Assembly (NCBI GenBank): GCA_050259595.1
Contig: JBLNAX010000068.1
Span: 3,905-67,904 of the forward strand
DNA from: Acidobacteriota bacterium
Lineage (GTDB): Bacteria > Bacillota > Syntrophomonadia > Syntrophomonadales > DTU052
DNA length: 64,000 bases
Reading direction: 5' to 3'
Shown: in pieces, positions 24,342 to 56,000 of the stretch
How positions within the stretch are numbered: the stretch's first letter is position 1
How the letters are laid out: the number at the start of each line of letters is the position of its first letter
Notes under the pieces: generated by a model
Seen by the model: only the letters and a program-made list of their open reading frames with translations
Told to the model about the DNA's origin: nothing
The model's database searches: none
Program-made: the position numbers and the translations under genes

Positions 24342-24416
24342 GCCGATGTGGCTCAGTGGCAGAGCAGCTGATTCGTAATCAGCAGGTCGGCGGTTCAAAT
24401 CCGCCCATCGGCTCCA
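24342..24416 (+). tRNA. tRNA-Thr(CGT)
   Basis: Cloverleaf GCCGATG/CATCGGC acceptor, TGGCTCAGTGGCAGAGCA D-arm, GCTGA-TTCGTAA-TCAGC anticodon arm (anticodon CGT), GGTTCAAATCC T-arm, encoded CCA. Confidence 0.9.
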
Positions 24417-24517: not shown

Positions 24518-25669
24518 TCATTTTTTGGTGCTTTCATTTTCATCTGGGATCTTGAGAACTGAACTGAGCCTCTCAACAGCTCGTTTTTTAAGCTTCTCTT
24601 TGACATGGCCATATGTATTTGCAGTGGTGCTCAGTGAGGCATGGCCCATTAGTTCTTGTATTACGCGCATATCCTCACCAGCTTCTAGAAGCAAAGAAGC
24701 ATAAGAATGGCGCAGCGAGTGGAATGTAATGTCTTTGTATTCCGGGTTTTCCTTTTCCAGCTTTTGAAGTAGAGATTTGAAATGCTTTGAGAGGTATTGG
24801 GGATCTACCATTCTGCCGTCTGGCCATGCAAAGACGAACCCTTCGTCAATATAACCGGTGCGGCATAGTTCCTTTTCTGCATCCTGACGGTTCTTATGAT
24901 TCTCTAAGATTGCCACAATATCTGAGGTTAGTGGAACAATCCGTTCGCCTTTTTTAGTCTTTGGGAGTTGATAAATAATCTTTGTCTTGCTAGGTGACTC
25001 AGGATCGTCATTAATGACTCTGCTAGCAGCTTCTCTGATTTCAATAATACCTTTATCCAAATTCACAAACTGCCAGCGGAGAGCTGCCAGCTCACCTACA
25101 CGTAGACCCGAACCAAGATCAAATAAGATCGCAGTGTACCATGGATCTTCTTGAATAGACTTAAGTAATTTGAAAGTCTGTTCAGAATCAAGGAAAGCCG
25201 CTTCCTTCTTTACTGGCCTCGGAGGAGTAGTTGCTAAGCAGGGGTTGCGGTATATTCTATCTTCTAAAACAGCCTGTTTAAGGGCTCCACTAAGTAGAAC
25301 ATGAAGGTACTCAATACTCCGAGCGGATAATGGCTGGCCTGTCTTCTTTGTTTTCTGTGTTTTCTTAGTGTTATAAAACCGTTGGATGTCAGAAGGTTGA
25401 AGATCTTTGAGCGGTATCTTATCGAAGTACGGTCTAATATGTATGCGGATTAATTGTTCGTAACTTCTACTGGTAGTAGGCCTAACATTGGTCTTATATG
25501 TTTCAAACCAGTATTGGACCCAAGCTCCAGCTGAAATTTGGCTAAAATCATGCATGACACCTTGATTATGCTGGTGTAACAAAGTCGTCATTTGTTTTTT
25601 CAACTCAGTTTTACTTTTGTTGTAAAGGGATTTGCGTCTTAGGGCGCCCGTTTCAGCATCTCGAAGCAT
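24518..25669 (-). CDS. tyrosine-type site-specific integrase
   Basis: C-terminal catalytic region [11 protein letters not shown] ... [40 protein letters not shown] (R, HxxR, H, Y), with an N-terminal SAM-like domain. It lies adjacent to tRNA-Thr. Confidence 0.9.
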
Positions 25670-33662: not shown

Positions 33663-33866
33663 CCCCTAAGATGCTATACTCTTATTATATCGATGGTGTT
33701 CGTAAAAGTATATATAATTTACGAATATGTACGCTTATTATTTATGGCCTTTACGGTCGCGAATAAGTGTAATTATAGTGGGCATTTGGGATGTTCGCAA
33801 AGGTGTACCTTTATGGTCGTTGTAAGATCTAGTATGTAAAATGAGGATTTATCAAGATAGGGTTAA

Positions 33867-33920
33867 GGCTACCGAACCGTATTATATCTGGTCCGGATCG
33901 CAAGATATGAACTCGGACAT
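33867..33920. repeat. decayed copy of the tRNA-Arg(TCT)/tRNA-Pro(TGG) junction (direct repeat of 34877-34930)
   Basis: GGCTACCGAACCGTATTATATCTGGTCCGGATCGCAAGATATGAACTCGGAC compared with GGCTACCGACCTGTATTTTATCTGGTCCGGGTGGCAAGATTTGAACTCGCAG. About 44 of 54 positions are identical, at an offset of 1010 bp. Confidence 0.7.
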
Positions 33921-34811: not shown

Positions 34812-34888
34812 TGGCAGGCCGGACAGGATTCGAACCTGCATTAGGCAGTTTAGAAGACTGCTGCCTCGATCCATTAGGCTACCGACCT
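34812..34888 (-). tRNA. tRNA-Arg(TCT)
   Basis: Minus-strand cloverleaf with anticodon arm GCAGT-CTTCTAA-ACTGC, T-arm GCAGG-TTCGAAT-CCTGT, and encoded CCA. Confidence 0.8.
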
Positions 34889-34898
34889 GTATTTTATC

Positions 34899-34975
34899 TG
34901 GTCCGGGTGGCAAGATTTGAACTCGCAGTCTCGTGGTCCCAGGCCACGCGGGATACCAAGTTACCCTACACCCGG
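34899..34975 (-). tRNA. tRNA-Pro(TGG), atypical C at position 33
   Basis: Acceptor CGGGTGT.../...CACCCGG-A-CCA. Anticodon arm CGTGG-CCTGGGA-CCACG. The reading is confirmed by the track translation SWSQATR on the plus strand. Confidence 0.75.
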
Positions 34976-34983
34976 AGGAATTA

Positions 34984-35061
34984 TGGTGTCGGAGGCGAGA
35001 GTCGAACTCGCAAAACTGCGGGTTTGAGCCGCATATGTATGCCTGATTCCATCACTCCGAC
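34984..35061 (-). tRNA. tRNA with Leu anticodon CAA but no long variable arm (78 nt)
   Basis: GTCGGAG-TG-ATGGAATCAGGCATACAT-A-TGCGG-CTCAAAC-CCGCA-GTTTT-GCGAG-TTCGACT-CTCGC-CTCCGAC-A-CCA. It has a 3-bp Leu-type D-stem and a 5-nt variable loop. Confidence 0.65.
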
Positions 35062-35062
35062 A

Positions 35063-35147
35063 TGGTAATGGTGGAGAGATTCGAACTCTCATGGCTATGG
35101 CCCCTGGTTTTTAAGACCAGGACGTATACCCGTTCCGTCACACCAGC
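35063..35147 (-). tRNA. tRNA-Leu(TAA)
   Basis: An 85-nt class II tRNA with anticodon arm CTGGT-CTTAAAA-ACCAG and a 13-nt variable arm GGGCCATAGCCAT. There is one 2:71 mismatch in the acceptor stem. Confidence 0.75.
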
Positions 35148-35154
35148 ATAATTA

Positions 35155-35230
35155 TGGAGCCGGTGAGAGGACTTGAACCCCTAATCTACTGATTACAAGT
35201 CAGCCGCTTTTTCCATTGAGCTACACCGGC
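35155..35230 (-). tRNA. tRNA-Thr(TGT)
   Basis: Acceptor GCCGGTG/CACCGGC, anticodon loop CTTGTAA, T-loop TTCAAGT, encoded CCA. Confidence 0.85.
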
Positions 35231-35237
35231 TAAAATA

Positions 35238-35314
35238 TGGTGCGGGAGGGAGGACTTGAACCTCCGATCTACCGGTTCAAAGCCGGTCGCGTTAACCAAT
35301 TACGCTACTCCCGT
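35238..35314 (-). tRNA. tRNA-Gln(TTG)
   Basis: Anticodon arm ACCGG-CTTTGAA-CCGGT and D-arm GCGTAATTGGTTAACGC. The 1:72 pair is weak or mismatched. Confidence 0.8.
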
Positions 35315-35323
35315 ATTTATCAT

Positions 35324-35399
35324 TGGCACGGGGCGAAGGGGTCGAACCTCCAGTCTCCTGGGTCAGAACCAGGCATGTTGCCAATTACACCAGCCCCGT
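35324..35399 (-). tRNA. tRNA-Gln(CTG)
   Basis: Anticodon arm CCTGG-TTCTGAC-CCAGG, an A1:U72 pair, encoded CCA. Confidence 0.8.
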
Positions 35400-35404
35400 A
35401 TTTT

Positions 35405-35480
35405 TGGTGCCCCCAGATGGACTCGAACCATCAACTAACCGGTTATGGGCCGGTAACTCTAACCATTGAGTTATGGGAGC
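35405..35480 (-). tRNA. tRNA(CAT), elongator Met or Ile2 type, atypical C33
   Basis: Acceptor GCTCCCA/TGGGGGC with a G1:C72 pair, so it is not initiator-like. Anticodon arm ACCGG-CCCATAA-CCGGT. The reading is confirmed by the track translation LTGYGPVT. Confidence 0.7.
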
Positions 35481-35484
35481 ATTT

Positions 35485-35562
35485 TGGGGTGACTGACGAG
35501 ACTTGAACTCGTAAAGACCGGGGTCACAGTCCGGCGCGTATACCATTTCCGCCACAGCCACC
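35485..35562 (-). tRNA. tRNA-His(GTG)
   Basis: Anticodon loop CTGTGAC. An encoded extra G(-1) lies opposite C73, the hallmark of bacterial tRNA-His. Confidence 0.88.
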
Positions 35563-35609
35563 GCGTTATTATCTTATCTCAGGGGGAAGATCCTCAAGAG
35601 ATTGTTATC

Positions 35610-35687
35610 TGGCTCCCCGAGCAGGGCTCGATCCTGCGACCCTCCGGTTAACAGCCGGGCGCTACCACCAAACTGAGCTATCGGGGA
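35610..35687 (-). tRNA. tRNA-Asn(GTT)
   Basis: Acceptor TCGGGGA/TCCCCGA, D-arm GCTCAGTTTGGTGGTAGC, anticodon loop CTGTTAA. The T-loop ATCGAGC is atypical. Confidence 0.8.
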
Positions 35688-35691
35688 ATAA

Positions 35692-35769
35692 TGGTGCCTC
35701 CGACAGGGATCGAACCTGTGACCCTTCGATTATCGGTCGAATGCTCTACCAAAACTGAGCTACAGAGGC
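35692..35769 (-). tRNA. tRNA-Ile(GAT), atypical C33
   Basis: Anticodon arm TTCGA-CCGATAA-TCGAA, D-arm GCTCAGTTTTGGTAGAGC, T-loop TTCGATC. Confidence 0.72.
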
Positions 35770-35774
35770 ATTAA

Positions 35775-35850
35775 TGGTGTCCCTGAGAGGACTCGAACCT
35801 CCAACTTACCGGTTAAAAGCCGGTTACTCTGGCCATTGAGTTACAGAGAC
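35775..35850 (-). tRNA. tRNA-Lys(TTT)
   Basis: Anticodon arm ACCGG-CTTTTAA-CCGGT, encoded CCA. Confidence 0.85.
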
Positions 35851-35854
35851 ATAT

Positions 35855-35929
35855 TGGTGCTCCCGGATGGACTTGAACCATCAGCCTCGCGGTTAAGAGC
35901 CGCTTGCTCTGCCATTGAGCCACGGAAGC
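35855..35929 (-). tRNA. tRNA-Lys(CTT)
   Basis: Anticodon loop CTCTTAA, T-arm GATGG-TTCAAGT-CCATC. Confidence 0.82.
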
Positions 35930-35939
35930 AAAACTATCA

Positions 35940-36014
35940 TGGTGCTGCGGGTTGGAATCGAACCAACTACGCCACGGGCTTCAACCGAGCGCTCTACCGG
36001 TGAGCTACCACAGC
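35940..36014 (-). tRNA. tRNA-Phe(GAA)
   Basis: Anticodon loop TTGAAGC with one U:U mismatch in the anticodon stem. D-arm AGCTCACCGGTAGAGC. Confidence 0.78.
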
Positions 36015-36020
36015 ATTATT

Positions 36021-36097
36021 TGGTGGACCTGACAGGACTCGAACCTGCAACCTTCTGCTTGCAAAGCAGTCGTTCTCGCCATTAGAACTACAGGCCC
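36021..36097 (-). tRNA. tRNA-Ala(TGC)
   Basis: Acceptor GGGCCTG with the G3:U70 Ala identity pair. Anticodon loop TTTGCAA. Confidence 0.85.
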
Positions 36098-36100
36098 ACA

Positions 36101-36176
36101 TGGTGCTCCCTGGTGGAATCGAACCACCGGTCTTATGCTTGTAAGGCATCTGCTCTTCTCACTGAGCTAAGGGAGC
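36101..36176 (-). tRNA. tRNA-Val(TAC)
   Basis: Acceptor GCTCCCT/AGGGAGC, anticodon loop CTTACAA, T-arm GGTGG-TTCGATT-CCACC. Confidence 0.85.
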
Positions 36177-36217
36177 CGGATAAATAAGAAGGGGTTGTGA
36201 CTTTAATTCACAACCCC
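36177..36217 (-). terminator. perfect 10-bp hairpin + U-rich tract between the two tRNA blocks
   Basis: GGGGTTGTGA-7 nt-TCACAACCCC. On the minus strand it is followed by TTCTTATTTATCCG, which runs straight into tRNA-Val. Confidence 0.45.
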
Positions 36218-36380
36218 TGGATTGGTCGTATTTTCGGTCACTTTAAGTATTCATGATCGTCTGTTTTGGGCATGTTGAGTTAATACGATAAACGGTTTTA
36301 TCGCTGTATTTCTGAATATTGTGTTCGTAATGCCCAAAGTTTTCACTGATTAATCTCCTATTCTTGTTTAGTATTAAAAC

Positions 36381-36470
36381 TGGCGGAGACGGAAGGACTC
36401 GAACCTTCAAACGCTGTTAACGTCACTGGGTTTCAAAGCCAGGCCCCGCCCCACTGGGGTCAACGTCTCC
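36381..36470 (-). tRNA. tRNA-Ser(TGA)
   Basis: A 90-nt class II tRNA with anticodon loop TTTGAAA, a C:C mismatch closing the stem, a long variable arm and discriminator G. The D-arm is poorly canonical. Confidence 0.65.
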
Positions 36471-36478
36471 TTGATTAA

Positions 36479-36566
36479 TGGAGGAAGAGGAGGGATTCGA
36501 ACCCACGGAACCTCACGGCCCTCCGGTTTTCGAAACCGGCGCATTAATCCTCTCTGCCAATCTTCC
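36479..36566 (-). tRNA. tRNA-Ser(CGA)
   Basis: An 88-nt tRNA with D-arm TGGCAGAGAGGATTAATGC, anticodon arm CCGGT-TTCGAAA-ACCGG and a 16-nt variable arm. There is one T-stem mismatch and one 7:66 mismatch. Confidence 0.72.
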
Positions 36567-36580
36567 TCAATGTTAAGTTC

Positions 36581-36675
36581 TGGCGGAGAGAGTGGGGGTC
36601 GAACCCACGCAGGCTGCTGCTAGCAACCCCTGGTGCCTTTCCAAGACACTCCCTTAGCCTCTTGGGTATCTCTCC
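36581..36675 (-). tRNA. tRNA-Ser(GGA)
   Basis: A 95-nt tRNA with acceptor GGAGAGA/TCTCTCC, anticodon arm GTGTC-TTGGAAA-GGCAC and a very long variable arm. Confidence 0.75.
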
Positions 36676-36682
36676 AAAAACA

Positions 36683-36773
36683 TGGCGGAGGATGTAGGAT
36701 TTGAACCTACGCAGGCGTTACCACCCCTAGCGGTTTAGCAAACCGCCCTCTTCAGCCACTTGAGTAATCCTCC
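36683..36773 (-). tRNA. tRNA-Ser(GCT)
   Basis: A 91-nt tRNA with acceptor GGAGGAT/ATCCTCC, anticodon arm GCGGT-TTGCTAA-ACCGC and a long variable arm. Confidence 0.78.
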
Positions 36774-36780
36774 GTATATT

Positions 36781-36857
36781 TGGTACGGACGAGAGGGGTC
36801 GAACCTCCAAAACTACGGGTCTAAGCCGCATACGTATGCCAGTTCCGTCACGTCCGC
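36781..36857 (-). tRNA. tRNA with Leu anticodon TAG but no long variable arm (77 nt)
   Basis: GCGGACG-TG-ACGGAACTGGCATACGT-A-TGCGG-CTTAGAC-CCGTA-GTTTT-GGAGG-TTCGACC-CCTCT-CGTCCGT-A-CCA. The reading is confirmed by the track translation WYGREGSNLQNYGSKPHTYASSVTSA. Confidence 0.65.
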
Positions 36858-36870
36858 ACGTTTTCAATTT

Positions 36871-36945
36871 TGGTTGCGGGCCCAGGAGTTGAACCAGGTT
36901 AATCCGAGTTATGAGCCCGGCGAAGATGCCGACCTTCCGCCCGCA
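36871..36945 (-). tRNA. initiator-like tRNA-Met(CAT)
   Basis: Anticodon arm CCGGG-CTCATAA-CTCGG with a G29-G31 run. The D-stem has an A11:U24 pair, and the 3' end is ...CCCGCAACCA as in tRNA-fMet. Position 1:72 is a U:A pair, and the T-stem has a U:U mismatch. Confidence 0.7.
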
Positions 36946-36946
36946 A

Positions 36947-37022
36947 TGGCGACCCCGACCGGATTTGAACCGGCGATCTCTGGCGTGACAAGCCAGCATT
37001 CTAGCCCCTGAACTACGGAGTC
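36947..37022 (-). tRNA. tRNA-Asp(GTC)
   Basis: Anticodon arm CTGGC-TTGTCAC-GCCAG, discriminator G, encoded CCA. Confidence 0.85.
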
Positions 37023-37029
37023 ATATTTA

Positions 37030-37116
37030 TGGAGGCGTGGACGGGGTTTGAACCCGCGCGGGCGCTATGCCCATCAGCTTGAAAGGCTGACCTCTGTACC
37101 ATTCGAGTACCACGCC
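37030..37116 (-). tRNA. class II-shaped tRNA (87 nt, long variable arm) carrying Glu anticodon TTC
   Basis: GGCGTGG-TA-CTCGAATGGTACAGAG-G-TCAGC-CTTTCAA-GCTGA-TGGGCATAGCGCCCGC-GCGGG-TTCAAAC-CCCGT-CCACGCC-T-CCA. It has a 3-bp D-stem, a 16-nt variable arm and discriminator U. Confidence 0.6.
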
Positions 37117-37129
37117 ATGCTGTTATATA

Positions 37130-37217
37130 TGGTGCCACCGGAGGGAATCGCACCCACTCGGGTCAATTGACGACGGATTTACAGTCCGCCCCGTCTGCTT
37201 TAACGGTCTACGATGGC
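37130..37217 (-). tRNA. tRNA-Tyr(GTA)
   Basis: An 88-nt class II tRNA with anticodon arm GCGGA-CTGTAAA-TCCGT, a 15-nt variable arm and discriminator A. The T-loop TGCGATT is atypical. Confidence 0.78.
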
Positions 37218-37226
37218 ATATTCATT

Positions 37227-37304
37227 TGGAGAACGGGGTGGGATTCGACCCCACGAGTCCATGGTTTTGCAGACCAGGCCATTAGGCCTCTCTGGCACCC
37301 GTTC
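37227..37304 (-). tRNA. tRNA-Cys(GCA)
   Basis: Anticodon loop CTGCAAA and discriminator U73 (a Cys identity element). Acceptor GAACGGG/CCCGTTC. The T-loop GTCGAAT is atypical. Confidence 0.75.
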
Positions 37305-37312
37305 ATATATTT

Positions 37313-37386
37313 TGGAGCGAGCAGTCAGACTCGAACTGACATCTCTGGCTTGGAAGGCCAGGGCACACCCTTTATACCATACCCGC
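37313..37386 (-). tRNA. tRNA-Gly(TCC)
   Basis: A 74-nt tRNA with anticodon arm CTGGC-CTTCCAA-GCCAG, a 4-nt variable loop and discriminator U73. Confidence 0.82.
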
Positions 37387-37396
37387 TTAATTATCA

Positions 37397-37475
37397 TGGC
37401 ACCGGTGGAGAGATTCGAACTCCCAAAACCTACTGGTTCGTAGCCAGCCGCTCTCTCCAGTTGAGCTACACCGGC
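37397..37475 (-). tRNA. tRNA-Arg(ACG)
   Basis: Anticodon arm GCTGG-CTACGAA-CCAGT, D-arm GCTCAACTGGAGAGAGC and a 7-nt variable loop. Confidence 0.8.
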
Positions 37476-37480
37476 ATTAT

Positions 37481-37571
37481 TGGCACGGGTGGAAGGAGTT
37501 GAACCCTCACAAGCCTTATAGGGGCCTTCGGATTTGGAGTCCGCTGCTCTGCCAGTTGGAGCTACACCCGT
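37481..37571 (-). tRNA. tRNA-Trp(CCA) carrying a 19-nt extra arm in the variable region (91 nt)
   Basis: ACGGGTG-TA-GCTCCAACTGGCAGAGC-A-GCGGA-CTCCAAA-TCCGA-[AGGCC-CCTATAA-GGCTT-GT]-GAGGG-TTCAACT-CCTTC-CACCCGT-G-CCA. The reading is confirmed by the minus-strand track translation CTGVAPTGRAADSKSEGPYKACEGSTPSTRA. Confidence 0.65.
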
Positions 37572-37580
37572 GCATTCGTA

Positions 37581-37618
37581 TATAAAAATAAAACCGAGTG
37601 CGATGTACACACTCGGTT
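37581..37618 (-). terminator. hairpin + U-tract just upstream of the first tRNA of the array
   Basis: AACCGAGTG-9 nt-CACTCGGTT. On the minus strand it is followed by TTATTTTTATA, ending about 10 nt before the tRNA-Trp 5' end. Confidence 0.45.
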
Positions 37619-37937
37619 CGAAAAATCTTCTACTTCGGTTGTTAATCACACGTTACGTTATTCGCTTCCCCCTGTTTGATCCCAGCATTGTATATTGTTT
37701 CGGATCGAATTGGGCGCAGTCTATCGAGCCAGAGAACAGACGCTCTGACCAGCGAATACTGAGACTATTTTGTTGGCTATTCAATAAGTGCCTCAACGCT
37801 GCACCCTCCTCTTGTATACAATATACATTAGCATAATAAAACCAAAACAATACAATGTCAACCACTTTTTAGATATTTGTCCTATATTATCATTTTCAAT
37901 TCAGTTCGGAAAGTCTGTAGAACTGTAGGTGATCGGT

Positions 37938-38951
37938 TCACCATAAATGCGTCCAGAATTCTGGCTCGTATGGCTTAAAATCAATGGCTTTATAGACGAA
38001 GGCATTATCTTTGTATTGATATGTAATGGTAAATGTACCGACATAATTGTCTGTATAATGGGTGCTGGCTTCTATCTTACAAATAATCTCGCCGTTTTTA
38101 TTAACAGCGAACTCATTCACTTCACTTGTAAACTGTTTATCAATATCCATAATTGCACCAGGAGGACAATATTTCTTCATCGGGTAACGCATTGTGTGGT
38201 TGTTGATATGAACCGTAATGTGCTTTTTGCTTAGAGAATTGGAACTGTGCCCAGCCCAAAGCTTGAAAGGGTCGTCAATAGGGATCTCCTTACCTGAGTC
38301 AGGATTCATAATGTGCGCCACATATAATGAACAGCCTGTTCCAGAACCTACAGGGACAAACACAGCAACCTCGGGTTTTTTATCCTGATCCCAATCATTA
38401 ACAGCCAGTTCGGGCATCACACCTCTGGGCAGCCGCGGAATATCAAAATATACTGAGCATGAAGTAGACTTGCTTGTTAGTTTAACCCCTTGATAATAAT
38501 ATTTAAGTGAATCAGCAGTTAATTTAAATCCATCGTCTTTTGAACTTGCTAGAATGTTAGTTTCTGTGGCTAGGGTAGCTGGGTCAAGCCAATATGAAAC
38601 CCTGCTATCATCCTTTCCCTGTGGCGGAGGATATAGGACAACCGCCAAAGGCGGCGTATGGGCAGAAGTATACCCTTCTTGCCAAATCTCGGGCATTTTA
38701 TTAGGATCAGTACTGGTCTTCCACGGAAGCTTACGTAAACGGCCATGTCCCTCAAGGATTAAATCGGTGTAGTAGTTGTTCTCAAGATTGGTTGCATATA
38801 ACGATACGCCTTCATATTGGGCTAAAAGTTTTTTAAAGGAGGAATTTGCAGGCCCTTCAACTTGTTTTTGTGAGTGAGAATCTGAACAGCCTCCGATGAG
38901 AAGAACAAGGATAGATAAAAGCAAGAAGCCGGTAAGATTGAGCTTTCGCAT
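37938..38951 (-). CDS. lipoprotein, function unknown
   Basis: An internal ATG gives MRKLNLTGFLLLSILVLLIGGCSDS, a signal peptide with lipobox L-I-G-G-C. The track ORF extends to 38981. Confidence 0.7.
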   Translation of the reverse strand: MRKLNLTGFLLLSILVLLIGGCSDSHSQKQVEGPANSSFKKLLAQYEGVSLYATNLENNYYTDLILEGHGRLRKLPWKTSTDPNKMPEIWQEGYTSAHTPPLAVVLYPPPQGKDDSRVSYWLDPATLATETNILASSKDDGFKLTADSLKYYYQGVKLTSKSTSCSVYFDIPRLPRGVMPELAVNDWDQDKKPEVAVFVPVGSGTGCSLYVAHIMNPDSGKEIPIDDPFKLWAGHSSNSLSKKHITVHINNHTMRYPMKKYCPPGAIMDIDKQFTSEVNEFAVNKNGEIICKIEASTHYTDNYVGTFTITYQYKDNAFVYKAIDFKPYEPEFWTHLW

Positions 38952-38965
38952 GGCGCCTCCAATAT

Positions 38966-39394
38966 CTAACAACGATTCCACTTGTCATCTTCCATGATTC
39001 TATCAATGATATGATTATCTGCCCAAACAGCTGTTACCTCCAGCCCTTCACAGTCAGCTTTGGTTGATGGCTTTATTTCCCCGCGATAATATACAGAGTA
39101 CTCACCTGATATAGCATCTACAATACATGAAGGTGGCGGCCACTCCTCATCTTCATTGAGAAATGGGCGGTGATCAACTTTTGGCCAATTCCCCGACTTG
39201 AGTACATAATCGTAAACTCCAACCATGAACTGGTATTCCTCGCAGTTAGGTAGGTCTTCCACTGATCCTCCGAGGTGCTTGTAGATTGCAATGGTTGCAT
39301 CCCGAAAAATTCTTCCAAATGCCCATTGCCCATTTGGAAGTGGAATAGCATATACATCTCCAATCTTCTTTCGCTTTCCGAGTTTTCTAGTCAT
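38966..39394 (-). CDS. putative polymorphic-toxin immunity protein (Imm26-like)
   Basis: The N-terminus KRKKIGDVYAIPLPNGQWAFGRIF...IAIYK resembles the Imm26 family as I remember it. It is a small cytoplasmic protein. Confidence 0.4.
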   Translation of the reverse strand: MTRKLGKRKKIGDVYAIPLPNGQWAFGRIFRDATIAIYKHLGGSVEDLPNCEEYQFMVGVYDYVLKSGNWPKVDHRPFLNEDEEWPPPSCIVDAISGEYSVYYRGEIKPSTKADCEGLEVTAVWADNHIIDRIMEDDKWNRC

Positions 39395-40283: not shown

Positions 40284-41531
40284 ATGGCTAAACTAGATGA
40301 TTTCAATAACATAAACATCCCGGTGCGGTTTTTCCGGAACCCAGACGTCAAATTTGAGAACAATGCTCTGGATGAACTCAAGAGTTTGCTCAATATATCT
40401 AGTACAATTGAGCACTTAAAAGAGTCAGATAAGGGTTTCTTTTCAAATATTGATGCTTGTGTTGAGGAGGTGGCCATTACCCCCGATTTTCATAAAGGAG
40501 CAGGAATTCCTATTGGGACTGTTATGCTGACCCAGGGATTGATTATACCGCAAGCCATCGGAAACGATGTTAATTGTGGGATGAGACTCTATGTAACTGA
40601 CCTTAATGAAGAAGCGATAAGATCAGTACTGCCGTATTTGGAGAATACAATTCGCCACGTCTTCTTTGAAGGTGGACAGAACATTCCAATGACTCGTATT
40701 CAGAGAGAAGCACTTTTAAAAGAAGGTCTTTTAGGGCTTCTTGAGACATCAAATATAGGCCAGAAAAAAGGCTTATGGCAATATTACCAGCGTGAGCAGC
40801 AGGAGTCCGAGATTGAGAATGTAAGCAGTATGGGGTCAATGATTGCTGATTCAGTGATTGGTCTGGACGATTTCTTAGGGATTAACGAGCTCTCGTACGA
40901 TGGGCAGATTGGTTCAATTGGAGGCGGAAATCACTTTGTTGAAGTCCAGACTGTCTCAAAGATATTGGATAGCCAGGTTGCTAATGCCTGGGGCTTGAAG
41001 AAAGATCAGATAGTGATAATGATTCACACTGGTTCGGTAATGATAGGACACCACAGTGGTTCATATTTTAAGGATATTGTTAAGAGTATCTACCCTAAGA
41101 ATCTTAAACATCCCGATAATGGTATATACATATTGCCGGATTCTGAGCAGTTCATTAATCAGTGGGATATGTTTTGGAACCTGCTGTCAAACGCTGCTAA
41201 CTTTGCGTTTGGTAACCGCCTATTCCTTGGTCTAATGCTTAAAAGGGCATTAGTTGAGACTATTGGGGAGTTTGATTGCAGGTTACTATATGATTCCCCC
41301 CATAACCTGGTTTGGAAAGAGAATATAGATGGCAAGAGCTATTATCTGCACCGGAAGGGTGCCTGCCCGGCTAGGAGCATGAGCCAAATGACAGGAACCA
41401 AGTTCGAGTATTATGGGGAACCTGTATTCCTGCCTGGGTCGATGGGATCATCCAGTTTTGTACTCGCAGGTCTTGGTAATAGGCAGAGCCTTTTTAGTGC
41501 TAGTCATGGTGCCGGGAACCTATCTTGTTGA
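40284..41531 (+). pseudogene. rtcB: RtcB-family RNA ligase, apparently C-terminally truncated
   Basis: RtcB motifs are present: PDFHKGAGIPIGTV, NDVNCGMRL, GGGNHFVEVQ, HTGS, HNLVW, LPGSMGSSSFVL and SHGAGN. The ORF stops 4 codons after HGAG, whereas family members normally continue for about 60-80 aa. Confidence 0.6.
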
Positions 41532-41803
41532 GATGGATAAATTTTAGCAAGAGCAGAGACTGTCTTGGGTATGAAGCAACAATTAAACACTATGAAAAGA
41601 TGCTACAAACTTGCCATCCTACCAATGTTGGACATGTTGAACAACTACTAGCTAACGCTAAAAACCATTCAGGGGCAACACTTCTAGATATAATAATCGA
41701 AATAATCGTGGATACGGACAATTCCGGGCATGACTGCAAGTTGATAACTGATGAGTAAAGGCATTTAACGTCCCATAAGTAAAGGTTGATGTCAAGATCA
41801 ACC

Positions 41804-47011: not shown

Positions 47012-50000
47012 ATGAGTAGATTAAAGTTTAGGGGAATTGCCATATTGCTGGTTGCATTGATGATGGTATGCACCTGCACTAGTGATTACTTTAGCATTGT
47101 TAGGTCAATAAGCTCAGTATTAATGGCAGATGAGTCGACTCCACCCGATATTGTGCCTGATACTCTGGCGCCATCATCGCCAACTAATTTGACTATTGTT
47201 TCTCAAACATATGACTCTGTATCCTTAACATGGAATGCATCGACCGACGATTCAGGAGTTGTTGGATATATCGTTTATAAAAACGGAATGGAATATGGAG
47301 TAGCAACTGAGACAAACTATACCGATAATGGCTTATCCCCTGCCAATAACTATACCTATAGTGTAAAAGCACTTGACCAGTACGGTAATCTATCCGACGC
47401 CAGCAATGAAGTCTTAATACAAATACCGGAGCAGCCGGTTACCCCGCCAGCTGTTGCTCTTTCCGCACCCTCCAATTTAAGTATAACCTCACAAACATAT
47501 GATTCAGTGTCTTTGTTCTGGTCTGCCTCTACAGGTGGAACAGGTGTCGTTACATATGTTGTATATCGCAATGACGAGCAGATCAGCACAACAAACGATA
47601 CTGCTTATTCAGACAGTGGTTTGGTCTCTGGAACAAGTTATGTTTACTGCGTAAAGGCGGTCGACGCAACTGGGACAGAATCTGAGGCTAGCAACCAAGT
47701 GACCTGGAGTGATCAAAACAACCAGTCGCCTGGCGGGAATGATTCTAACTCGGGTGGTGCCGGTGGCGGGGGCGGAACGATAAGCCCAAATGGGTTAACT
47801 TCCCCAGTAAATCTTGCGGTCTATGAACAAACGAGTAGTTCTGTAACACTGACCTGGGATGCTGCAACTGGGACAGTCAACTATGTAGTATACCGGGATG
47901 GAAATGAAATAGGGACAGTTATCAATAACGCCTATACAGACAGCGGTTTAACAGTTGGGACTACATACAAGTACATTGTCAAAGCCGTCGATGAGGCTGG
48001 AAATGTTTCGCAAGTCAGCAATGAGGTGACCGTACAGATACCTGCGATTGAAACCGTAACGCCGCCATCAAACCTACAAGCGGTCGTTAATTCGTTTAAT
48101 TCTGTTAGCCTGAGTTGGACGGCTCCAAGCAGTGAGAATATTGTCGCATATGTCGTATACCGAAATGGTGAATCAATAACTACTGTAATAGGAACAGCTT
48201 ATGTCGACACGAAGTTGCCAGTGGCAACTACATATTCATATACAGTCAAAGCCGTGGACACTGACGGTAAAATTTCGCTAGGAAGCAATGAAGCATTTGT
48301 AACTCTTCCGGCTCTGCAGATAAAAAAAGTGCCCTTAGCAGCCGGGGATTCACACAGCCTGATAGTGAAGAGTGACGGCAAAGTGTGGTCATGGGGAAGC
48401 AATGGGGGTGGTCAGCTGGGGTCAGGTACCGCACAATCCACTATTCCAGTCAAAGTATTGGACTTGGTGGGAATTCAAGCGGTTTCTGGCGGCTATTATC
48501 ACAGCTTGGCTCTGGATAGTAACGGTTGGGTTTGGGCCTGGGGTGCAAATAGCAGTGGAGAGTTGGGGATCGGGTCTGAACTAGACAGCTCCAAACCTGA
48601 AAAGGTTCAGAACCTGGAAGGTATCATAGCGATTGAGGCAGGCAATTCGTACAGCTTGGCTTTGAAAAATGACGGCACTGTATGGGCATGGGGCTCAAAT
48701 TATAACGGTATATTCGGTAATAATGAATTAGATGAAAGCAATGTGCCAGTTCAAATTAATGGATTGGCTGGGGTTGTAGCAATTGCAGCCGGACAAAGCC
48801 ACTGCCTGGCTCTCATGAATGATGGCACGGTTTGGGGATGGGGATCGAATTCTGAAGGCCAACTTGCAGATAACAATGATGGTCAACCCGCTAGAATTTC
48901 TAATCTTTCGGGAATAACAGCAATTGCTGCAGGGGGATATCATAGCCTGGCGTTGGCTAGTAATGGTGTTGTTTGGTCATGGGGAAACAATGCCAGCGGA
49001 CAATTGGGAATTGGAATGCCGCCTTACTCAGCATATCAACCTACCGCAATGAATATTTCGGGGATAAAAGCTATAGCAGCAGGTGAAGAGTTTAGCCTTG
49101 CCCTTAAAGACAATGGGTCAGTGGTAAGTTTTGGTGCTAACTGGGGCGGTCAACTGGGAAATGATTCGACATACCAGTGGCAGACTTATGGGACAGTATC
49201 TCAAATCAATAATGTGACATCTATAGCATGTGGTGACACCCACGGACTTGCTGTGGAAAGCAGTGGCAAAGTTTGGGCTTGGGGCTGGAATAGTAATGGT
49301 CAATTGGGCAATGGTACTACCACACAAAGCATTGTCCCGGTCACTCTTGTGGACTCCCAACCCCCTACCGCTCCCAAGAATTTAGCGATGACGAACATGA
49401 CGGAATCATCTTTAACACTTGTATGGGAAGAATCCGATGATTTCTTTGGTGTAACTGGCTATGATATTTATCGTAATGGAACCAAAATAGCCAGCACCAG
49501 CTCAACCGGTTATGTTGACACATCAATCAATAAAGACTCTATTTATTCATACACAGTCAAAGCATTTGATGCAGCGGGCAATTATTCTTCTGCCAGCAAT
49601 GTTGCATCAAATGATGTCATGCCGCCGTCTGCACCTACAAACTTGACGGTTCTGGACGTGACCGGTTCCTTGGTGTCTCTGTCGTGGACTGTCAGCACTG
49701 ACAATGGAGCAGTGACAGGATACAAGATATTACGTAACGGAATCGAAATCGATTCATCAGCAACCAACAGTTACATAGATAACAATGTTTTAGCTGGAGA
49801 GACTTACGTTTATTGTGTAAAAGCCTTTGATGCAGCAAGTAACCTGTCTGATTCCAGCAATGAGGTTTCAGTTACCACTGCAGCACTCAACATCAACAAA
49901 GTTTATCTGTCGGCGGGAGGAAACCAGAGCGCCTGGCTGAAAAATAACGGTAGATTATTTATCTGGGGTAGTAATGTAAACGATCTTGATTATTCTGCAG

Positions 50001-53000
50001 GGGATCTTACAATTCCCACAGAATTGCCGATCGATAATGTGGCAGCAGTAGCCGACGGCAGTAATCATATCGTCTACTTAAAAAATAATGGTTCGGTATG
50101 GGTATCAGGTGCCAACTGGGATGGCCAATTAGGAAAACCTGGTGCGGGTGAATCAAGTCCCATTCAGGTACCTGGGGTAGGTGGAATAATAGCAGTCGCA
50201 TCTAACAACAACCATACCTTGGCCCTTAGAGCAACTGGTAAGGTATGCGCCTGGGGTAATAATAGTTATGGTCAGTGTGGAACTGGCGATACCTCCAGTC
50301 CCAGTCTGCCTGCCGATGTAAAGAACCTAACTGATGTTATTAGTATTGCTTGTGGTGAAAGTTTTAGTATTGCTCTTAAAAGTAACGGTGAAGTCGTGGC
50401 CTGGGGCAGAAACGACTATGGTCAGTTGGGCAATGGTACTACTGCACCCAGCTATACCCCGGTCAACGTAAAAACCTCGACCGGCAATTTAACTGGAGTA
50501 ATAGCCATAGCAGCAGGCAGCAAGCATGCTCTGGCTCTGCTGGCCAATGGGACAGTATATGCATGGGGATATAATTACTACTTCCAATTAGGATATAGTG
50601 CCTACAATTACAGTGCACGTGCTCAACAAGTAAGCGGTCTTACAGGTGTGACGGCAATTGCAGCTGGCTACTATCATAGCCTGGCCTTAAAGAGCAACGG
50701 AGAAGTCTGGGGCTGGGGCAGAAACATTGATGGTCAGTTGGGCACTGGCTCCACGTCATGGAATAGCGCACTGGTAAAAGTCAAGGACCTGTCCGGTGTA
50801 ATCGCTATTGCCGCAGGGAACAGCCACAGTTTAGGGCTTAGAAGCGATGAAAAGGTATTTGCATGGGGATATAATGGTTATGGTCAGCTTGGAAACGGCA
50901 CCAAGAGCCCCATCAGCTATCCGGTTCCTGTCGGGGATAGCCAGCCACCAGCAGCTCCTGGTAATTTGGTGGTAAACTCCACGTCTACGACTTCCAGTTT
51001 GAAATGGGATGCTGCACAGGACAATGTGGGTGTTATAGGCTATGAGGTATATCGAAACGGCGAGAAGATTGCTACAGTAAATACTACGATCTATCAGGAC
51101 AATGAGCTGACACCCGAAGGTAATTATGAATACTCTGTTAAAGCTTTTGATGCCGCCGGAAATATTTCGGCTTTTAGTAATTTAGCTGTACGTGATTATG
51201 AGGCTCCCACAGCACCAGGCAATTTAGTTTTTAATAATGCAGACTTTACATCGGTATCAATTAGCTGGGATGCCGCCACAGATAATATGGGGGTTAAAGG
51301 CTATAAAATATATCGTGATGGTGTCGAGGCTGGATCTTCGATTTCGACCACATATACAGATACTGGTTTGATTCCTGGAAAATCATATACATATATCGTT
51401 AAAGCCTTTGACGCCGGCGAAAACTTATCTTCTGCCAGCAATGAGCTTACTTTATCCACTAGTGCCGACCTAGAAAAACCGAGTAAGCCGACCAATCTGA
51501 ATATTTACTTTTACAATACTCAAGCTAAAATATATTGGTCTGAAGCAACAGATAATGTTGGAGTTGTCGGTTATGAAGTATATAAGAATGGCTTGAAGAT
51601 TGCCACTGTTATCGATAATCAATATTACGACAATGCTGCATCCGGTGACAGCTATACGGTTTTCGCATGTGATGCTGCTGGCAATTATTCAGAATCCAGT
51701 GATTCATATCTGTTTATCGATGATTTTGGTAACAAAAAAGAAGATGCAGCAAGCATTGATCTGGGGCAGGAAAAGGTTGGATACATTAACTATAGCGGTG
51801 ATAATGATTATGTCAAATTTACCACTACCGTTGCCGGAAGTTATCTTGTAGATGCTTCAACTGTACCGCCTGGAGGTTATCTGACTGTAGAATTGCTGAG
51901 CAGCAGCGGCAGTCATCTCGCGAGCGATACCTTTAATGAGGAAAGCCCGGCCACACTGACTAGGTCACTCCAAGGGAATAGCACGTACTATGTGTGCATA
52001 TATGAAACGCCAATGTACGGCTTTGACGATCAATCAGAGCCACCTTCTCCCCCGGCTAACTGCCGGGGCGGATATAGGATTAAAATCTATCCGGCGGATA
52101 ACGAACCACCTACTCCGCCCGCCAATCTAACAGCGGTTGATAAGACCGCAACTAGTCTGACATTAACCTGGGATGCCGCAACGGATAATATCGGGGTGGC
52201 AGGCTACAGCATTTATAGGGACGGATTGAAAATTGGTGATACATCAAATCTAAGCTATGCGGTTAATGGGCTTTTACCCAACAATACTTATATATTTGCT
52301 GTGAAGGCTTACGATCTAAAAGGCAATTTCTCAATAGAAAGCACGGTTCAGGTATCTACAGAGACAGACACAGAACCGCCAACCGTTCCTGAGAATCTTG
52401 TGGTCACCGAGAAAAATGGACGCAATACTACGCTGAGCTGGACTGCGTCAACCGATAACAAGGGCTTGGCAGGATACGAGCTTTACCGCAATGGCACCAA
52501 GCTGGTTACTGTAACAGATACCGTTTACAGTGATAATGGGTTGATCAATGGAACATATTCTTATACGGTTAAAGCGATCGACCTGGCTGGTAACACATCC
52601 GATTCAAGCAACCAGGTCGAGGTGATTGTTAATGAAGACATTACACCGCCGACCGCTCCCCAGAATCTGACTGCTTCCCAAATCAAATTAAAGAGTATCT
52701 ACATAACCTGGCAGGCTTCTACTGATAATGTAGGGGTTAAATGGTATTATGTGTATCGTGATGGAAAATTCATTAACGGTGGAACCGGTGCTTTTACCGG
52801 TGCTGAAGATTTTCAAGTAACACCGGGAGCTACTTACCAGTACTATGTACGAGCTGTTGACGCTGCTGGCAATATGTCAGAGCCCAGCAACACCATAACC
52901 GTCACATCACTTCAGGATACTGCAGCCCCCACTGCTCCAACCAATCTTAGAGTAATCGCCAGAGGGGCGGAATCCGTCAGCCTCAAATGGAACACTTCCA

Positions 53001-56000
53001 CTGACGATGTGGGAGTGTTGGAATACAGCATATTCCGAAATGATATTAAGGTTGGGACTTCAACGGGCCTGGAGTTTTATGATACTGGATTCGATAGAAC
53101 AGCGGTAAATACTTATTACGTTAAGGCATTGGATGCAGCGGCTAATCTATCACAACCCAGTAATTCAGTTATTCATGAGATAATTCCACCTTCTATTCCC
53201 CAGAATCTGAGCTTGGTTTCTAAGACCAGCCGGAATATCAATATCACCTGGGACGCTTCCACAGATAATGTTACGGTTAGCGGTTATGAAGTGTTCCGGG
53301 ATGGTACATCCATAGCCCGGACGGTATATACCAGTTTCTCTGATAACGGACTTATTCCGGAACAGACCTACACTTATACGGTAAGATCCTTTGATAGCGT
53401 AGGCAATATATCGAATACTAGCAGTGCCCTAAGTGTGATCACCGATCCTGATACCATTCCGCCGACTATTCCACAGGCTTTGAGTCTGGTGGGATACACC
53501 GGTAGTACCGTTTCTATTAAATGGAACCCATCGACTGATGACTACCAGATGGCCAAATACGAGGTGTTCCGCAACGGCACATCGGTGGGACAGACTGTGT
53601 ATTCTCATTTTACCGATACCGTATTGAATGTCGGCACCGATTATATTTATACCGTAAAAGCAATTGACTCGGCGGGCAATGTTTCGGACGCCAGCAGTAC
53701 GCTGACGGCCGCTCCGCAACTGCCCCAGATTACACGGGTGGAACCGCCCAATAACACTTTGATCGGTGGGTTAAGCAGCCGCAATCTGAGAGTCTATTAT
53801 AAGGATACGGCGGATACCGGAGAGACACTGGGAGCCGAGTATTCCCTGGACAATGCCGTTTGGAATAATACAGGCTTTGCTTTCAACGGTCCTTATCAAT
53901 ACGATGGATCAACTCAATACTTCAACTGCACTTGGTCTTCCCCGCTTACGGCCAGTGGTAAATACACTGTACGATTCACATTAACAGACAGCACCGCGCA
54001 CAGTGTGCAAAAGGTCGTCTACTATCAGATTGATAATGAAGCGCCAATGGTACCCAAGAATCTTACCGCCCAGCCTATAGTAGGCGGCGGAGGTATTCAG
54101 CTGGCCTGGGATCCGCCTATTGATACCGATATCAGCTATTATCAGATCTACCGTTCCGTTTATGCGGAAGAAGGTTATACACCGTTATACAGAATGAGCG
54201 CTGGTATTTGCTCATACACCGATCGTTCGGCCCTGCCTGGGACCAAGTGCTACTACAAGGTTTCAGCGGTTGATGTCAACGGGCAGGAAAGTGCAGCTTC
54301 CGCCAGCGCTAATGCCATTGCACCTTCAGATACCGTATGTCCGGTTGTGACCAGCCTTTATCCGGCCTTTGGTTCAGGGTTGGGCTTAAACCCCGTCTTT
54401 ACGGTAAATTCCCACGATAATTTAGGAATTAAATCAACCAAGCTCCAATATTCACTGAATGATGGAGTAGACTGGACTGATATTGGGAGCACTAATGGTT
54501 ATGCTCAGTTCCCATGGAGCACTCAGGGACTCAGCGGCCAAGTCAAGATTAGAGCCATAGTTACCGACTACTCAGACAATGTCAGTGATGGTACACCTGT
54601 TTATTCGTACTTCATAGATCATGACGGGCCGGCTAAGGTGACAGGACTGGCTGGTACACCTAAGGCGACCGGTGTTCTGCTAAAGTGGCAGGATGTGCCG
54701 GACAATGATTTAGCCTACTTCCAGGTGGAAAAGGCGACTACTCAAGATGGTCAGTTTGTGGTCTACCAAACCACTTCCAGATACCTGGGTATGAATGTTA
54801 CCGGACTAACTGCAAATACCGATTACTGGTTCCGGGTGGTAGCTTTTGATGTCCGCGGCAATGCCGGGACATACTCGGATGTTGTGCAGGTTCGCACTAC
54901 AGAAGATACTGATTCTCCGGTAGTCACAGCCATCAGACCTGGTGCGGGTTATTATGCGGGTGCGATTCCTCTCAGTGCCGATGCCTGGGATGACGTGGGA
55001 GTGACCTCGGTAAAACTCCAGTATTCGCAGGACAAGGTACAGTGGAATGATATAGAAACCATAACCCCCGCAGAAGTTGCCGCTAGGGTAACAGTTAACT
55101 ATAACTGGGATACCACAACCATGGCGGAAGGTTCGTACTTTGTCCGCGCCATTGCGGTGGATACCAACCAGCACGACAACTCTACTCAGAATTCGTGGGT
55201 GGAATACCGCGTAAACCGCAGTGCGCCTACAGATGCTCCGCAAGGACTTACACTGACGGAAGCAGCGGGCAATCTGCGTCTGATATGGCAAAACATTGAT
55301 GATCCTGGACTCGCTGGCTACAAGGTATACCGGGCGCAGGGCATTAATGGACCTTTTAACCAGATATCTTCGGCAGCGTTGATTGGCTACTATGACTATA
55401 ACGTGCAGCCCGGTATTACATATTACTACAAAGTTGCTGCTTACAATGCTGTGGGTCTGGTAGGTCCCGACAGTGAGATTGTCAGCGGTAAGCTGCTGGA
55501 CGACAATGAAGCGCCAAAGATAATTAGTGTGGTTCCGGCTAGCGGTGATACCCTGCCGGGCAATCCGGAAATCAGTGCCCTGGTAAGTGACAACTATAAA
55601 GTAGCCACGGTTGAGCTTAAGTACAAATCAGCCACTGAGGGCGATGACTGGCATTCGATCGCCCAGCGTAGTGTCAACAAATCCAGTGAAGTAGTGGCTT
55701 TCACCTGGAATGCCGATGGACTAAGCGATGGGAGCTATACTCTGAGGCTGGTTGTCGCCGATGCTGGTGGACGGGTAACTGAATCCAGCGACTTGAACTA
55801 TAACCTGAAGGTCTACAAGGTCAGCCCGCCCGTCTTGACGGCGGTGGCTGCCGACTGGAAGGTTAACCTCTCATGGACCGGAGAGAAAGGCGAATACTTT
55901 AAAGAATATCGCATCTATAGGTCAACTGTAACCGGTCAGTTCTACAAGCTAATTAAAACAACCACAGACAACTCTTGTTGTGATGATGTGATTTCGCCAG

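Follow-up and report, generated by a model that had tools for sequence, protein, structure and literature searches.

The locus analysed here raises a question of identity: which amino acid is carried by a tRNA that combines a Glu anticodon with a body of class II shape and a stem-loop variable arm? The gene lies at positions 37030-37116 (minus strand) of a 64,000-nucleotide (nt) stretch of DNA from an Acidobacteriota bacterium (contig JBLNAX010000068.1, positions 3,905 to 67,904; this whole stretch is referred to as the window), within a dense array of tRNA genes. Our answer, to which we assign a probability of about 0.6, is that the gene specifies a functional elongator tRNA for the codons GAA/GAG, which would most likely be charged with Glu by the glutamyl-tRNA synthetase (GluRS) of the host despite its class II shape, as the Glu member of an acquired L-array, the published type of long tRNA array described below.

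Fold of the gene

ARAGORN called the gene as an 87-nt tRNA-Glu(ttc), and of the 30 tRNA genes in the window no other has a Glu anticodon, in agreement with the original prediction, which had described this one as the only Glu decoder of the array. A 7-bp acceptor stem is followed by U8 and A9, a 3-bp D-stem (CUC/GAG) enclosing a 10-nt D-loop (GAAUGGUACA), and a 5-bp anticodon stem that is lengthened by G26:U44 and carries the loop CUUUCAA; after 16 nt, which separate the anticodon stem from the T-stem, come the T-arm GCGGG-UUCAAAC-CCCGU, U73 and an encoded CCA. The limits proposed earlier for the variable arm were correct within one base (Table 1). The Rfam tRNA model RF00005 scored the gene at 55.9 bits (gathering score 29), which is mid-range for the array, and its alignment placed a 13-nt insertion in the variable region. 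The invariant tRNA positions U8, A14, G18G19, U33, G53-U54-U55-C56, A58 and C61 were all present. Unconstrained minimum free energy (MFE) folding returned the same five-arm cloverleaf (−37.6 kcal/mol, z = −3.05), and none of 200 shuffles was as stable. Because this fold reproduced the cloverleaf, no competing structure with a variable loop of 4-5 nt, which would have contradicted the original prediction, was obtained by unconstrained folding. The gene was thereby confirmed as a real, well-formed tRNA with a stem-loop variable arm, and the class II shape, the 3-bp D-stem and the U73 noted at the outset were borne out by ARAGORN, Rfam and MFE. The view that such a shape is unexpected for tRNA-Glu also held. 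The only long-armed isotypes named in reviews of tRNA identity and of non-canonical tRNAs are Leu, Ser, Tyr and selenocysteine (Sec), and in a survey of 61 cyanobacteria the Glu variable loops measured 4-5 nt.

A recurrent family in mobile-element arrays

Rather than a singular oddity, as it had been taken to be, the window's gene is one member of a widespread and recurrent long-armed type found in phage and mobile-element arrays of many bacterial phyla. Viral contigs were scanned with a pattern that combined a UUC loop, a gap beyond that of a class I variable loop, a T-loop and a CCA at the right distance; all family scans required CUUUCA, and those of genomes and metagenomes also required a GCGGG/CCCGU T-arm. 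More than 45 distinct long-armed tRNA-Glu(UUC) genes were found in viral contigs, bacterial metagenome-assembled genomes (MAGs), metagenomes and cultured Klebsiella and Citrobacter phages. At least 27 of them, of 84-94 nt, come from viral contigs, and most of these, among the matches listed, share the T-arm GCGGGUUCRANNCCCGU. The contigs of bacterial and archaeal MAGs (one genome per species) provided 16 more, nearly all inside dense arrays, in Bacteroidota, Planctomycetota, Gammaproteobacteria and others, and the metagenome scan added ten further loci. A viral pattern built on the window's D-arm yielded chance matches only.

An 89-nt homolog is present in Klebsiella phages KP13-26, phi1_175008, FKP3 and KP2025 and in Citrobacter phage Tr1, annotated as 'tRNA-Glu', and in the array of KP13-26 the long-armed gene is the only one for Glu. 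A gammaproteobacterial MAG (L141) carries an array of 32 tRNAs for 20 amino acids, with the long-armed gene as its sole Glu together with a long Trp and a short Leu; both this array and that of the window are complete for the 20 amino acids only if the long-armed gene is counted as Glu. Long and normal Glu(UUC) genes also share loci: 19 of 44 family loci contain both, and in 12 of these 19 the two directly adjoin. With the covariance model R1, for which 20 members were used, the window's gene ranked 13 of 36 at 82.6 bits, well within the range of the family, whereas generic tRNAs score about 35-55 bits. The gene shows the features that define the family, that is, a 7/5 tRNA (acceptor stem/T-stem) with UUC, a hairpin variable region of 11-22 nt, a T-stem of the Glu/Asp type and a location in an array. 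A long-armed tRNA-Glu was not described in the full-text literature searched, which did not cover subscription journals, and the type is apparently undescribed so far.

The pairing statistics indicate that the structure of the family, variable arm included, is under selection. In an alignment of 36 members fitted to the model, a fit that leans towards the model, standard pairs occupied 95.6% of the pair cells, versus 66.5% in column shuffles and 37-45% with slid partners, and compensatory changes on both sides were seen at 22 of the 24 pairs, including all four of the variable stem. The variable stem was 72.6% paired, a lower bound since its register differs between members. In place of an underpowered per-sequence shuffle test, we used these pair counts together with a position-constrained, alignment-free family test, in which the hairpin opens 0-2 nt from position 44 and closes 1-4 nt before the T-stem. 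The mean Watson-Crick stem was 3.23 bp, versus 1.72 bp in shuffled arms (z = 11, 0 of 2000), over 39 different arm sequences; the sequences vary and the hairpin is kept.

The amino acid carried by the long-armed tRNA

The discriminator (position 73) follows the isotype tightly in these arrays. It is A in 78 of 79 Leu and in all 23 Tyr tRNAs, G in all 25 Trp, U in all 16 Cys, and G40/U6/A1 in Ser; in class I Glu it is A26/G6/U1, and the long-armed Glu has a similar profile (A25/G7/U6/C1). It varies like that of class I Glu; the long-armed family is incompatible with a single Leu, Tyr or Ser identity, and the U73 of the window's gene excludes Leu and Tyr. The T-stem pairs 49-51/63-65, which tune the affinity of EF-Tu to the esterified amino acid (PMC9976931), were GCG/CGU in 13 of 25 viral members (among the matches listed, in a scan without T-arm requirement), in none of 105 Leu, Ser and Tyr tRNAs and in 12 of 36 Asp tRNAs; class I Glu has mostly ACG/CGU. 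Given this tuning, a stem of the Asp/Glu type fits an acidic amino acid. When the bodies of 39 members, without the arm and with a masked anticodon loop, were compared with 775 other array tRNAs, the most similar one was a class I Glu in 13 of 39 cases (background 4%) and a Ser, Leu or Tyr tRNA in 3 of 39 (background 13.5%).

In some family members an arm is inserted into what is otherwise an ordinary phage tRNA-Glu. Four of them (L069, L009, L115 and L038) align over their full length with the normal tRNA-Glu, 77-78 nt long, of Hafnia and Klebsiella phages, share with these the D-helix closed by U13.G22, and differ essentially by an insertion of 10-13 nt in the variable region; the augmented D-helix was found in these four and in L121, a long-armed gene with the canonical Glu D-arm. 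Other long-armed isotypes of the arrays keep their cognate marks as well: G-1 with C73 in His (3 of 3), G73 in Trp (5 of 5), U73 in Cys (3 of 3), U1:A72 with G73 in Gln, and G73 in Asn. The window's gene retains U11:A24, a GluRS determinant in Escherichia coli (PMC9976931), and its anticodon stem, UCAGC, is at most one mismatch away from 21% of class I Glu stems and from 0-7% of the Leu, Ser or Tyr stems. From comparisons of this kind we infer that the tRNA would be charged with Glu and used on the ribosome.

Compared with canonical class I tRNA-Glu(UUC), the gene has in common the anticodon with U33 and A37 in a 7-nt loop, CUUUCA(A/C), the T-stem pairs N49:U65, C50:G64 and G51:C63, a variable discriminator and, in the window's copy, U11:A24. 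In contrast, the canonical molecule has a 4-nt variable loop that lacks nucleotide 47 where the long-armed one has a stem-loop of 15-16 nt, and an augmented D-helix closed by U13.G22, whereas the sub-group of the window's gene has a 3-bp D-stem with G13.A22. Bacterial Leu, Ser and Tyr tRNAs resemble it in the 3-bp D-stem, the large D-loop, the stem-loop arm with 2-3 unpaired 3' bases and the frequent 26:44 pair, and the core of the sub-group is most similar to that of Leu; they differ from it in the anticodon, in the discriminator, which is not fixed across the long-armed family, and in the T-stem, whose type is absent from them.

Several observations weigh against a cognate tRNA-Glu. The absence of nucleotide 47 (Δ47) and the augmented D-helix with U13-G22:A46 are major GluRS determinants in E. 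coli and Acidithiobacillus ferrooxidans (PMC9976931); the window's gene has neither, and therefore efficient charging by a GluRS of the E. coli type is not expected. Six of the 47 array Ser tRNAs, Ser(CGA) of the window among them, likewise have U73, and the body of the gene could not be placed, with a best similarity of 0.34 (Gly, Asp, long Trp and long Leu). After the family itself, the covariance model of the sub-group picks long Gln, long Gly and then Leu (14 of the 36 top non-family matches). Because so many Leu tRNAs are among these matches, the sub-group may have a Leu-like core, perhaps of Leu-scaffold descent, joined to an anticodon arm and a T-arm of the Glu type. Moreover, the CUUUCA and T-arm features of the family were partly selected by the design of the scans, the A15:C48 of the window's gene is an unusual Levitt pair, the neighbouring Met (36871-36945) and Tyr (37130-37217) genes look degenerate, and nearly half of the family adjoins a normal Glu(UUC), an arrangement compatible both with redundancy and with a distinct role.

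Coexistence with normal Glu(UUC) in 19 of 44 phage-array cases would suit a decoy or sponge, in which mimicry of the tRNA-Glu anticodon arm absorbs a nuclease or toxin, or serves another tRNA-dependent enzyme, off the ribosome. A sponge role has been proposed for L-array tRNAs (PMC8421152), E. coli tRNA-Glu is preferentially cleaved by RloC (PMC3458546), and tRNA arrays have been discussed as anti-defence elements (PMC12803027). G49.U65 and C50-G64, which belong to the EF-Tu-rejecting box of E. coli tRNA-Sec, point the same way, but one third of the ordinary array Asp tRNAs have these pairs, for which reason we rejected them as an EF-Tu rejection signal, and the third element of the box, C7-G66, is replaced in this gene by G7-C66. 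The full acceptor stem, the encoded CCA and the position of the long-armed gene as sole Glu in complete arrays (the window and L141) and in that of KP13-26 make a decoy unlikely, and the intact invariant positions and the family-wide covariation disfavour the non-functional decoy that the original prediction had listed. That prediction had also proposed a Ser, Tyr or Leu body with an acquired Glu anticodon. One part of this proposal stood, in the Leu-like D-arm and core of the sub-group; the mistranslating tRNA that it implied seems to us rather improbable. In such a case, a class II body would be charged by the Leu, Ser or Tyr synthetase (the Glu anticodon is not needed, and the Tyr enzyme reads U35) and GAA/GAG would be decoded as Leu, Ser or Tyr, perhaps only when stress induces the array. 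Consistent with it are the class II features of the gene, its stem-loop arm and 3-bp D-stem, the many Leu tRNAs among the next matches of the sub-group model, A73 in most family members and a core of the A15:U48 type in many, the U73 of some array Ser tRNAs and the missing GluRS determinants; in addition, G1-C72, G2-C71, G4-C69 (R4-Y69), G30-C40 and the large variable region of the gene are all on the bacterial Ser list (PMC9976931), and misacylation came into question for some array tRNAs of Anabaena because of their odd mobility in acid gels (PMC8421152). However, U73 excludes Leu and Tyr, which have A73, and the Ser marks G73, C11-G24 and a variable stem of 5-7 bp are replaced by U73, U11-A24 and a 4-bp stem; the acceptor stems of the U73 sub-group lack consistent Ser marks, and the variable stem, of 3-4 bp, is short beside those of the Ser tRNAs of these arrays. 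A T-stem of the Leu, Ser or Tyr type is never seen, the discriminator is not fixed across the family, plain Glu bodies with an added arm are among its members, and the other long-armed isotypes keep their cognate marks. A mistranslating tRNA would leave the array without Glu while it serves the other 19 amino acids, and no mistranslation was detected in Anabaena (PMC8421152).

Decay of the gene, as a relic in a rarely expressed array, is in our opinion very unlikely. The poor scores of the neighbouring Met and Tyr against the tRNA model, the apparent truncation of RtcB, the unusual A15:C48 and the finding that 3 of 26 Anabaena array genes are pseudogenes (PMC8421152) would agree with a pseudogene; its mid-range Rfam score, its fully paired stems, its high score against the family model and the conservation of the type across phyla, with compensatory changes, do not. 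The Sec-like relative suggested in the original prediction, or an allo-tRNA, reading UCA/UGA or recoding, was refuted on structure and retains a negligible probability. This idea had arisen from the long arm, from the anticodon stem, which reaches 6 bp with G26:U44 included, and from a UCA that can be read in the loop. The helices are 7/5, not the 8/5 of tRNA-Sec nor the 8/4 or 9/3 (a 12-bp acceptor branch) of allo-tRNAs; the D-arm has a 3-bp stem and a 10-nt loop, not 6 bp and 4 nt, position 73 is U and not G, pair 7-66 is G7-C66, and the standard 7-nt loop puts UUC at positions 34-36. The Rfam tRNA model scores above the tRNA-Sec model for this gene, there were no sel genes among the open reading frames (ORFs) examined, and G49.U65 with C50-G64, the only defining features shared with tRNA-Sec, are also found in Asp. 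Like this tRNA, the reported allo-tRNAs (PMC5389517, PMC7609411) have a long arm and an anticodon unexpected for their shape and were found by sequence mining; they differ in their Ser or Ala identity, which is independent of the anticodon, whereas the window's gene has cognate marks. A functional tRNA-Glu remains the reading that we prefer.

The array, its element and the exchange of tRNA classes

The window is bacterial chromosome, not phage, and 29 of its tRNA genes form a single minus-strand array of 2.76 kb (Table 1).

Table 1. Coordinates of the long-armed tRNA-Glu gene, its parts and the surrounding features in the window
Feature	Position	Strand	Basis
tRNA-Glu(UUC), 87 nt, class II-shaped, CCA encoded	37030..37116	minus	ARAGORN, Rfam RF00005, MFE cloverleaf, model R1
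Anticodon UUC (positions 34-36), inside 7-nt loop CUUUCAA	37081..37083	minus	ARAGORN and direct sequence reading
Variable arm: stem GGGC/GCCC, loop AUAGC, then unpaired GC	37058..37072	minus	Fold, family hairpin test, covariation
Discriminator U73	37033..37033	minus	Sequence
Array of 29 tRNA genes, all 20 amino acids, two blocks (37571-36381, 36176-34812)	34812..37571	minus	ARAGORN, Rfam
Chromosomal tRNA-Thr(CGU), probable integration site	24342..24416	plus	ARAGORN; integrase adjoins
Tyrosine-type integrase	24518..25669	minus	PHROG phrog_1, E = 1.8e-70
RtcB RNA ligase, possibly C-terminally truncated	40284..41531	plus	Pfam PF01139, E = 1.8e-77, profile positions 7-353 of 426
Sigma-70-like promoter TTGACA-17-TATTAT, upstream of array	37833..37861	minus	11/12 matches, consensus match alone
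Block 1 leader: Shine-Dalgarno AGGAGG, 47-codon ORF (37796-37653), terminator-like hairpin and U-tract (37619-37591)	37591..37810	minus	Sequence
Block 2 leader: Shine-Dalgarno, 31-codon ORF (36346-36251), terminator-like hairpin (36218-36190)	36190..36360	minus	Sequence

An arginine-biosynthesis operon (argC, argJ, argB, argD, argF, argG, argH) ends at the tRNA-Thr(CGU) gene, after which come the integrase, regulators, a resolvase, a HigB/HigA-like pair and the tRNA array; past the array lie an orphan ORF, an Imm26 protein, RtcB, a WYL regulator and a DJ-1 protein. The array is carried by an integrated element, with the tRNA-Thr as its probable integration site; no att repeat of this tRNA was detected within the window, which leaves the far boundary of the element undefined. 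With 29 genes in 2.76 kb, an integrase at a tRNA-Thr, a resolvase and a HigBA-like pair nearby, the array matches the published L-array type (PMC8421152), a long, dense, one-strand set of supernumerary tRNA genes on horizontally acquired DNA. The terminator-like hairpin of block 1 just precedes the first tRNA, and that of block 2 just precedes tRNA-Val. This layout suggests candidate ribosome-mediated attenuation, and the array would then be expressed conditionally through two attenuator-like leaders; neither leader matched an Rfam family.

L-arrays are horizontally spread sets associated with RtcB that stay silent until translation is impaired, and in the operon of Anabaena sp. PCC 7120, 23 of 26 tRNAs were aminoacylated in vivo (PMC8421152). 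The window's array resembles that of Anabaena in being long, dense, confined to one strand, supernumerary and on mobile DNA, in its association with RtcB and in its likely conditional expression. In contrast, promoter direct repeats regulate the Anabaena array, whereas units of leader ORF and terminator precede both blocks here, and no long-armed Glu was reported there.

Other features of the element and its surroundings were also recorded. RtcB ends seven residues past its HGAG motif, and the next ORF (41525-41758) had no Pfam match. At 33866-33915, beyond the HigB/HigA-like cassette, the tRNA-Arg/tRNA-Pro junction (34876-34925) recurs with 88% identity; this copy suggests that the cassette was inserted into or beside an older array end. 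The second tRNA-Met(CAU) (36871-36945) and the tRNA-Tyr(GUA) (37130-37217), both on the minus strand, scored poorly against the tRNA model; their best match in the Rfam clan was tRNA-Sec, at a sub-threshold 27.0 and 32.3 bits, respectively, and the T-loop of the Tyr gene is UGCGAUU, without U55. Judging from these features, both may be degenerate or highly divergent. U73 is found in tRNA-Ser(CGA) (36479-36566) and in tRNA-Thr(UGU) (35155-35230), both on the minus strand. Directly upstream of the array, an ORF of 347 aa with a lipoprotein-like N-terminus (37938-38981, minus strand), whose start is overlapped by the Imm26 gene, had no Pfam match, and a comparison with 5.8 billion proteins gave no homolog for it. 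Two giant ORFs on the plus strand, of 2,214 aa (6124-12768) and 4,970 aa (47012-61924), flank the region, and Big_2 Ig-like, laminin-G and RHS domains are numerous in the proteins near them. DNA 100% identical to that of the window was found in short Logan contigs from two runs of one study (via the HigB and ArgD proteins); exact-protein look-ups with RtcB and the WYL regulator gave no match, and searches of deposited phages and plasmids by megablast and blastn, with the array or with the gene as query, returned nothing or generic tRNA similarity.

The array mixes structural classes, with long Glu, long Trp(CCA) and short-looped Leu(CAA) and Leu(UAG). The tRNA-Trp(CCA) (37481-37571, minus strand) has 91 nt, a variable arm with a 5-bp stem-loop and the Trp marks A1-U72 and G73, and four further long Trp genes, all with G73, were found in L011, L115 (two) and L141. 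The tRNA-Leu(CAA) and Leu(UAG) (34984-35061 and 36781-36857, minus strand) have a 5-nt variable loop, GUUUU, a D-arm of the Leu type and A73, and short-armed Leu genes of 73-78 nt are common in the fetched arrays (44 unique, all A73). These are of the same kind as the type I tRNA-Leu of Streptomyces coelicolor (PMC6614811), which is also a precedent for the long-armed Glu as an isotype in the 'wrong' class; there a different isotype lost its arm, whereas here one was gained, and cognate charging was proven there by experiment, whereas we infer it here. A further class I anticodon on a long-armed body is that of a tightly conserved 92-nt tRNA called as Ile(UAU), in which the variable stem-loop has 5 bp, the D-stem of 3 bp encloses a loop of only 6 nt and position 73 is A; viral contigs contain at least 33 copies of it (L006, L007, L008, L019, L021 and about 28 more; 91 nt in L165). 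Long tRNA-His genes (87-88 nt, G-1, C73) adjoin the long Glu, with the same D-arm and T-arm, in three Saprospiraceae/Aureispira MAG contigs (L129, L145 and L163), where they resemble a pair of paralogs with different anticodons and acceptor ends. Long tRNA-Asn(GUU) genes of 85-89 nt with G73 are present in Klebsiella phage KP13-26 (L124, OP617743.1, locus 3197-3281), L105 and L173.

As our leading guess, the arm would mark the tRNA of the element apart from that of the host, for instance towards host factors such as nucleases that target tRNAs; an insertion that is neutral and tolerated, and that spread by duplication within arrays, would fit the data equally well. Arrays have been discussed as anti-defence or back-up sets (PMC12803027; PMC8421152). 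Phage tRNAs that evade tRNA-targeting defences likewise differ from the host isoacceptors while keeping the same decoding role, but the known cases involve changes in the anticodon loop or small changes of sequence and not a change of class, and no nuclease has been linked to long Glu. According to work cited in PMC12330615, the tRNA-Tyr of phage T5 allows escape from the tRNA-cutting defence PtuAB, and Septu cuts the variable loop of tRNA-Tyr (PMC13096335). Evasion of nucleases of the RloC/PrrC type through the shape of the body was considered and found weak, because RloC also cuts isolated anticodon stem-loops (PMC3458546). More tentatively, and with some doubt, arrays might follow a general strategy in which Glu, His, Trp, Cys, Gln, Asn, Lys, Thr and Met, all of class I, receive a class II core and Leu loses its arm, each with its cognate marks kept; the products would be chargeable yet hidden from factors that read shape, such as defence nucleases, toxins or the element's own degraders of host tRNA.

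What we describe is a tRNA-Glu of class II architecture that recurs in mobile-element arrays and is part of a wider exchange of class among array tRNAs. Long Glu is accompanied by long His, Trp, Cys, Gln, Asn and Lys and by short Leu, across phages, plasmid-like contigs, chromosomal islands and several phyla, and annotation pipelines label the long-armed genes plain 'tRNA-Glu'. Textbooks and identity reviews restrict the long arms of bacteria to Leu, Ser, Tyr and Sec and count the absence of nucleotide 47 as a major identity element of Glu. If our reading is true, a GluRS charges a tRNA without Δ47 or the augmented D-helix, which are major determinants in E. coli; the homologs in the cultured phages KP13-26, phi1_175008, FKP3 and Tr1 make the question accessible to laboratory test. 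Its confirmation would mean that the structural class of a tRNA is more plastic than assumed, that GluRS tolerates the variable region, or that some types of GluRS ignore it, and that a selective pressure specific to the tRNAs of mobile elements exists.

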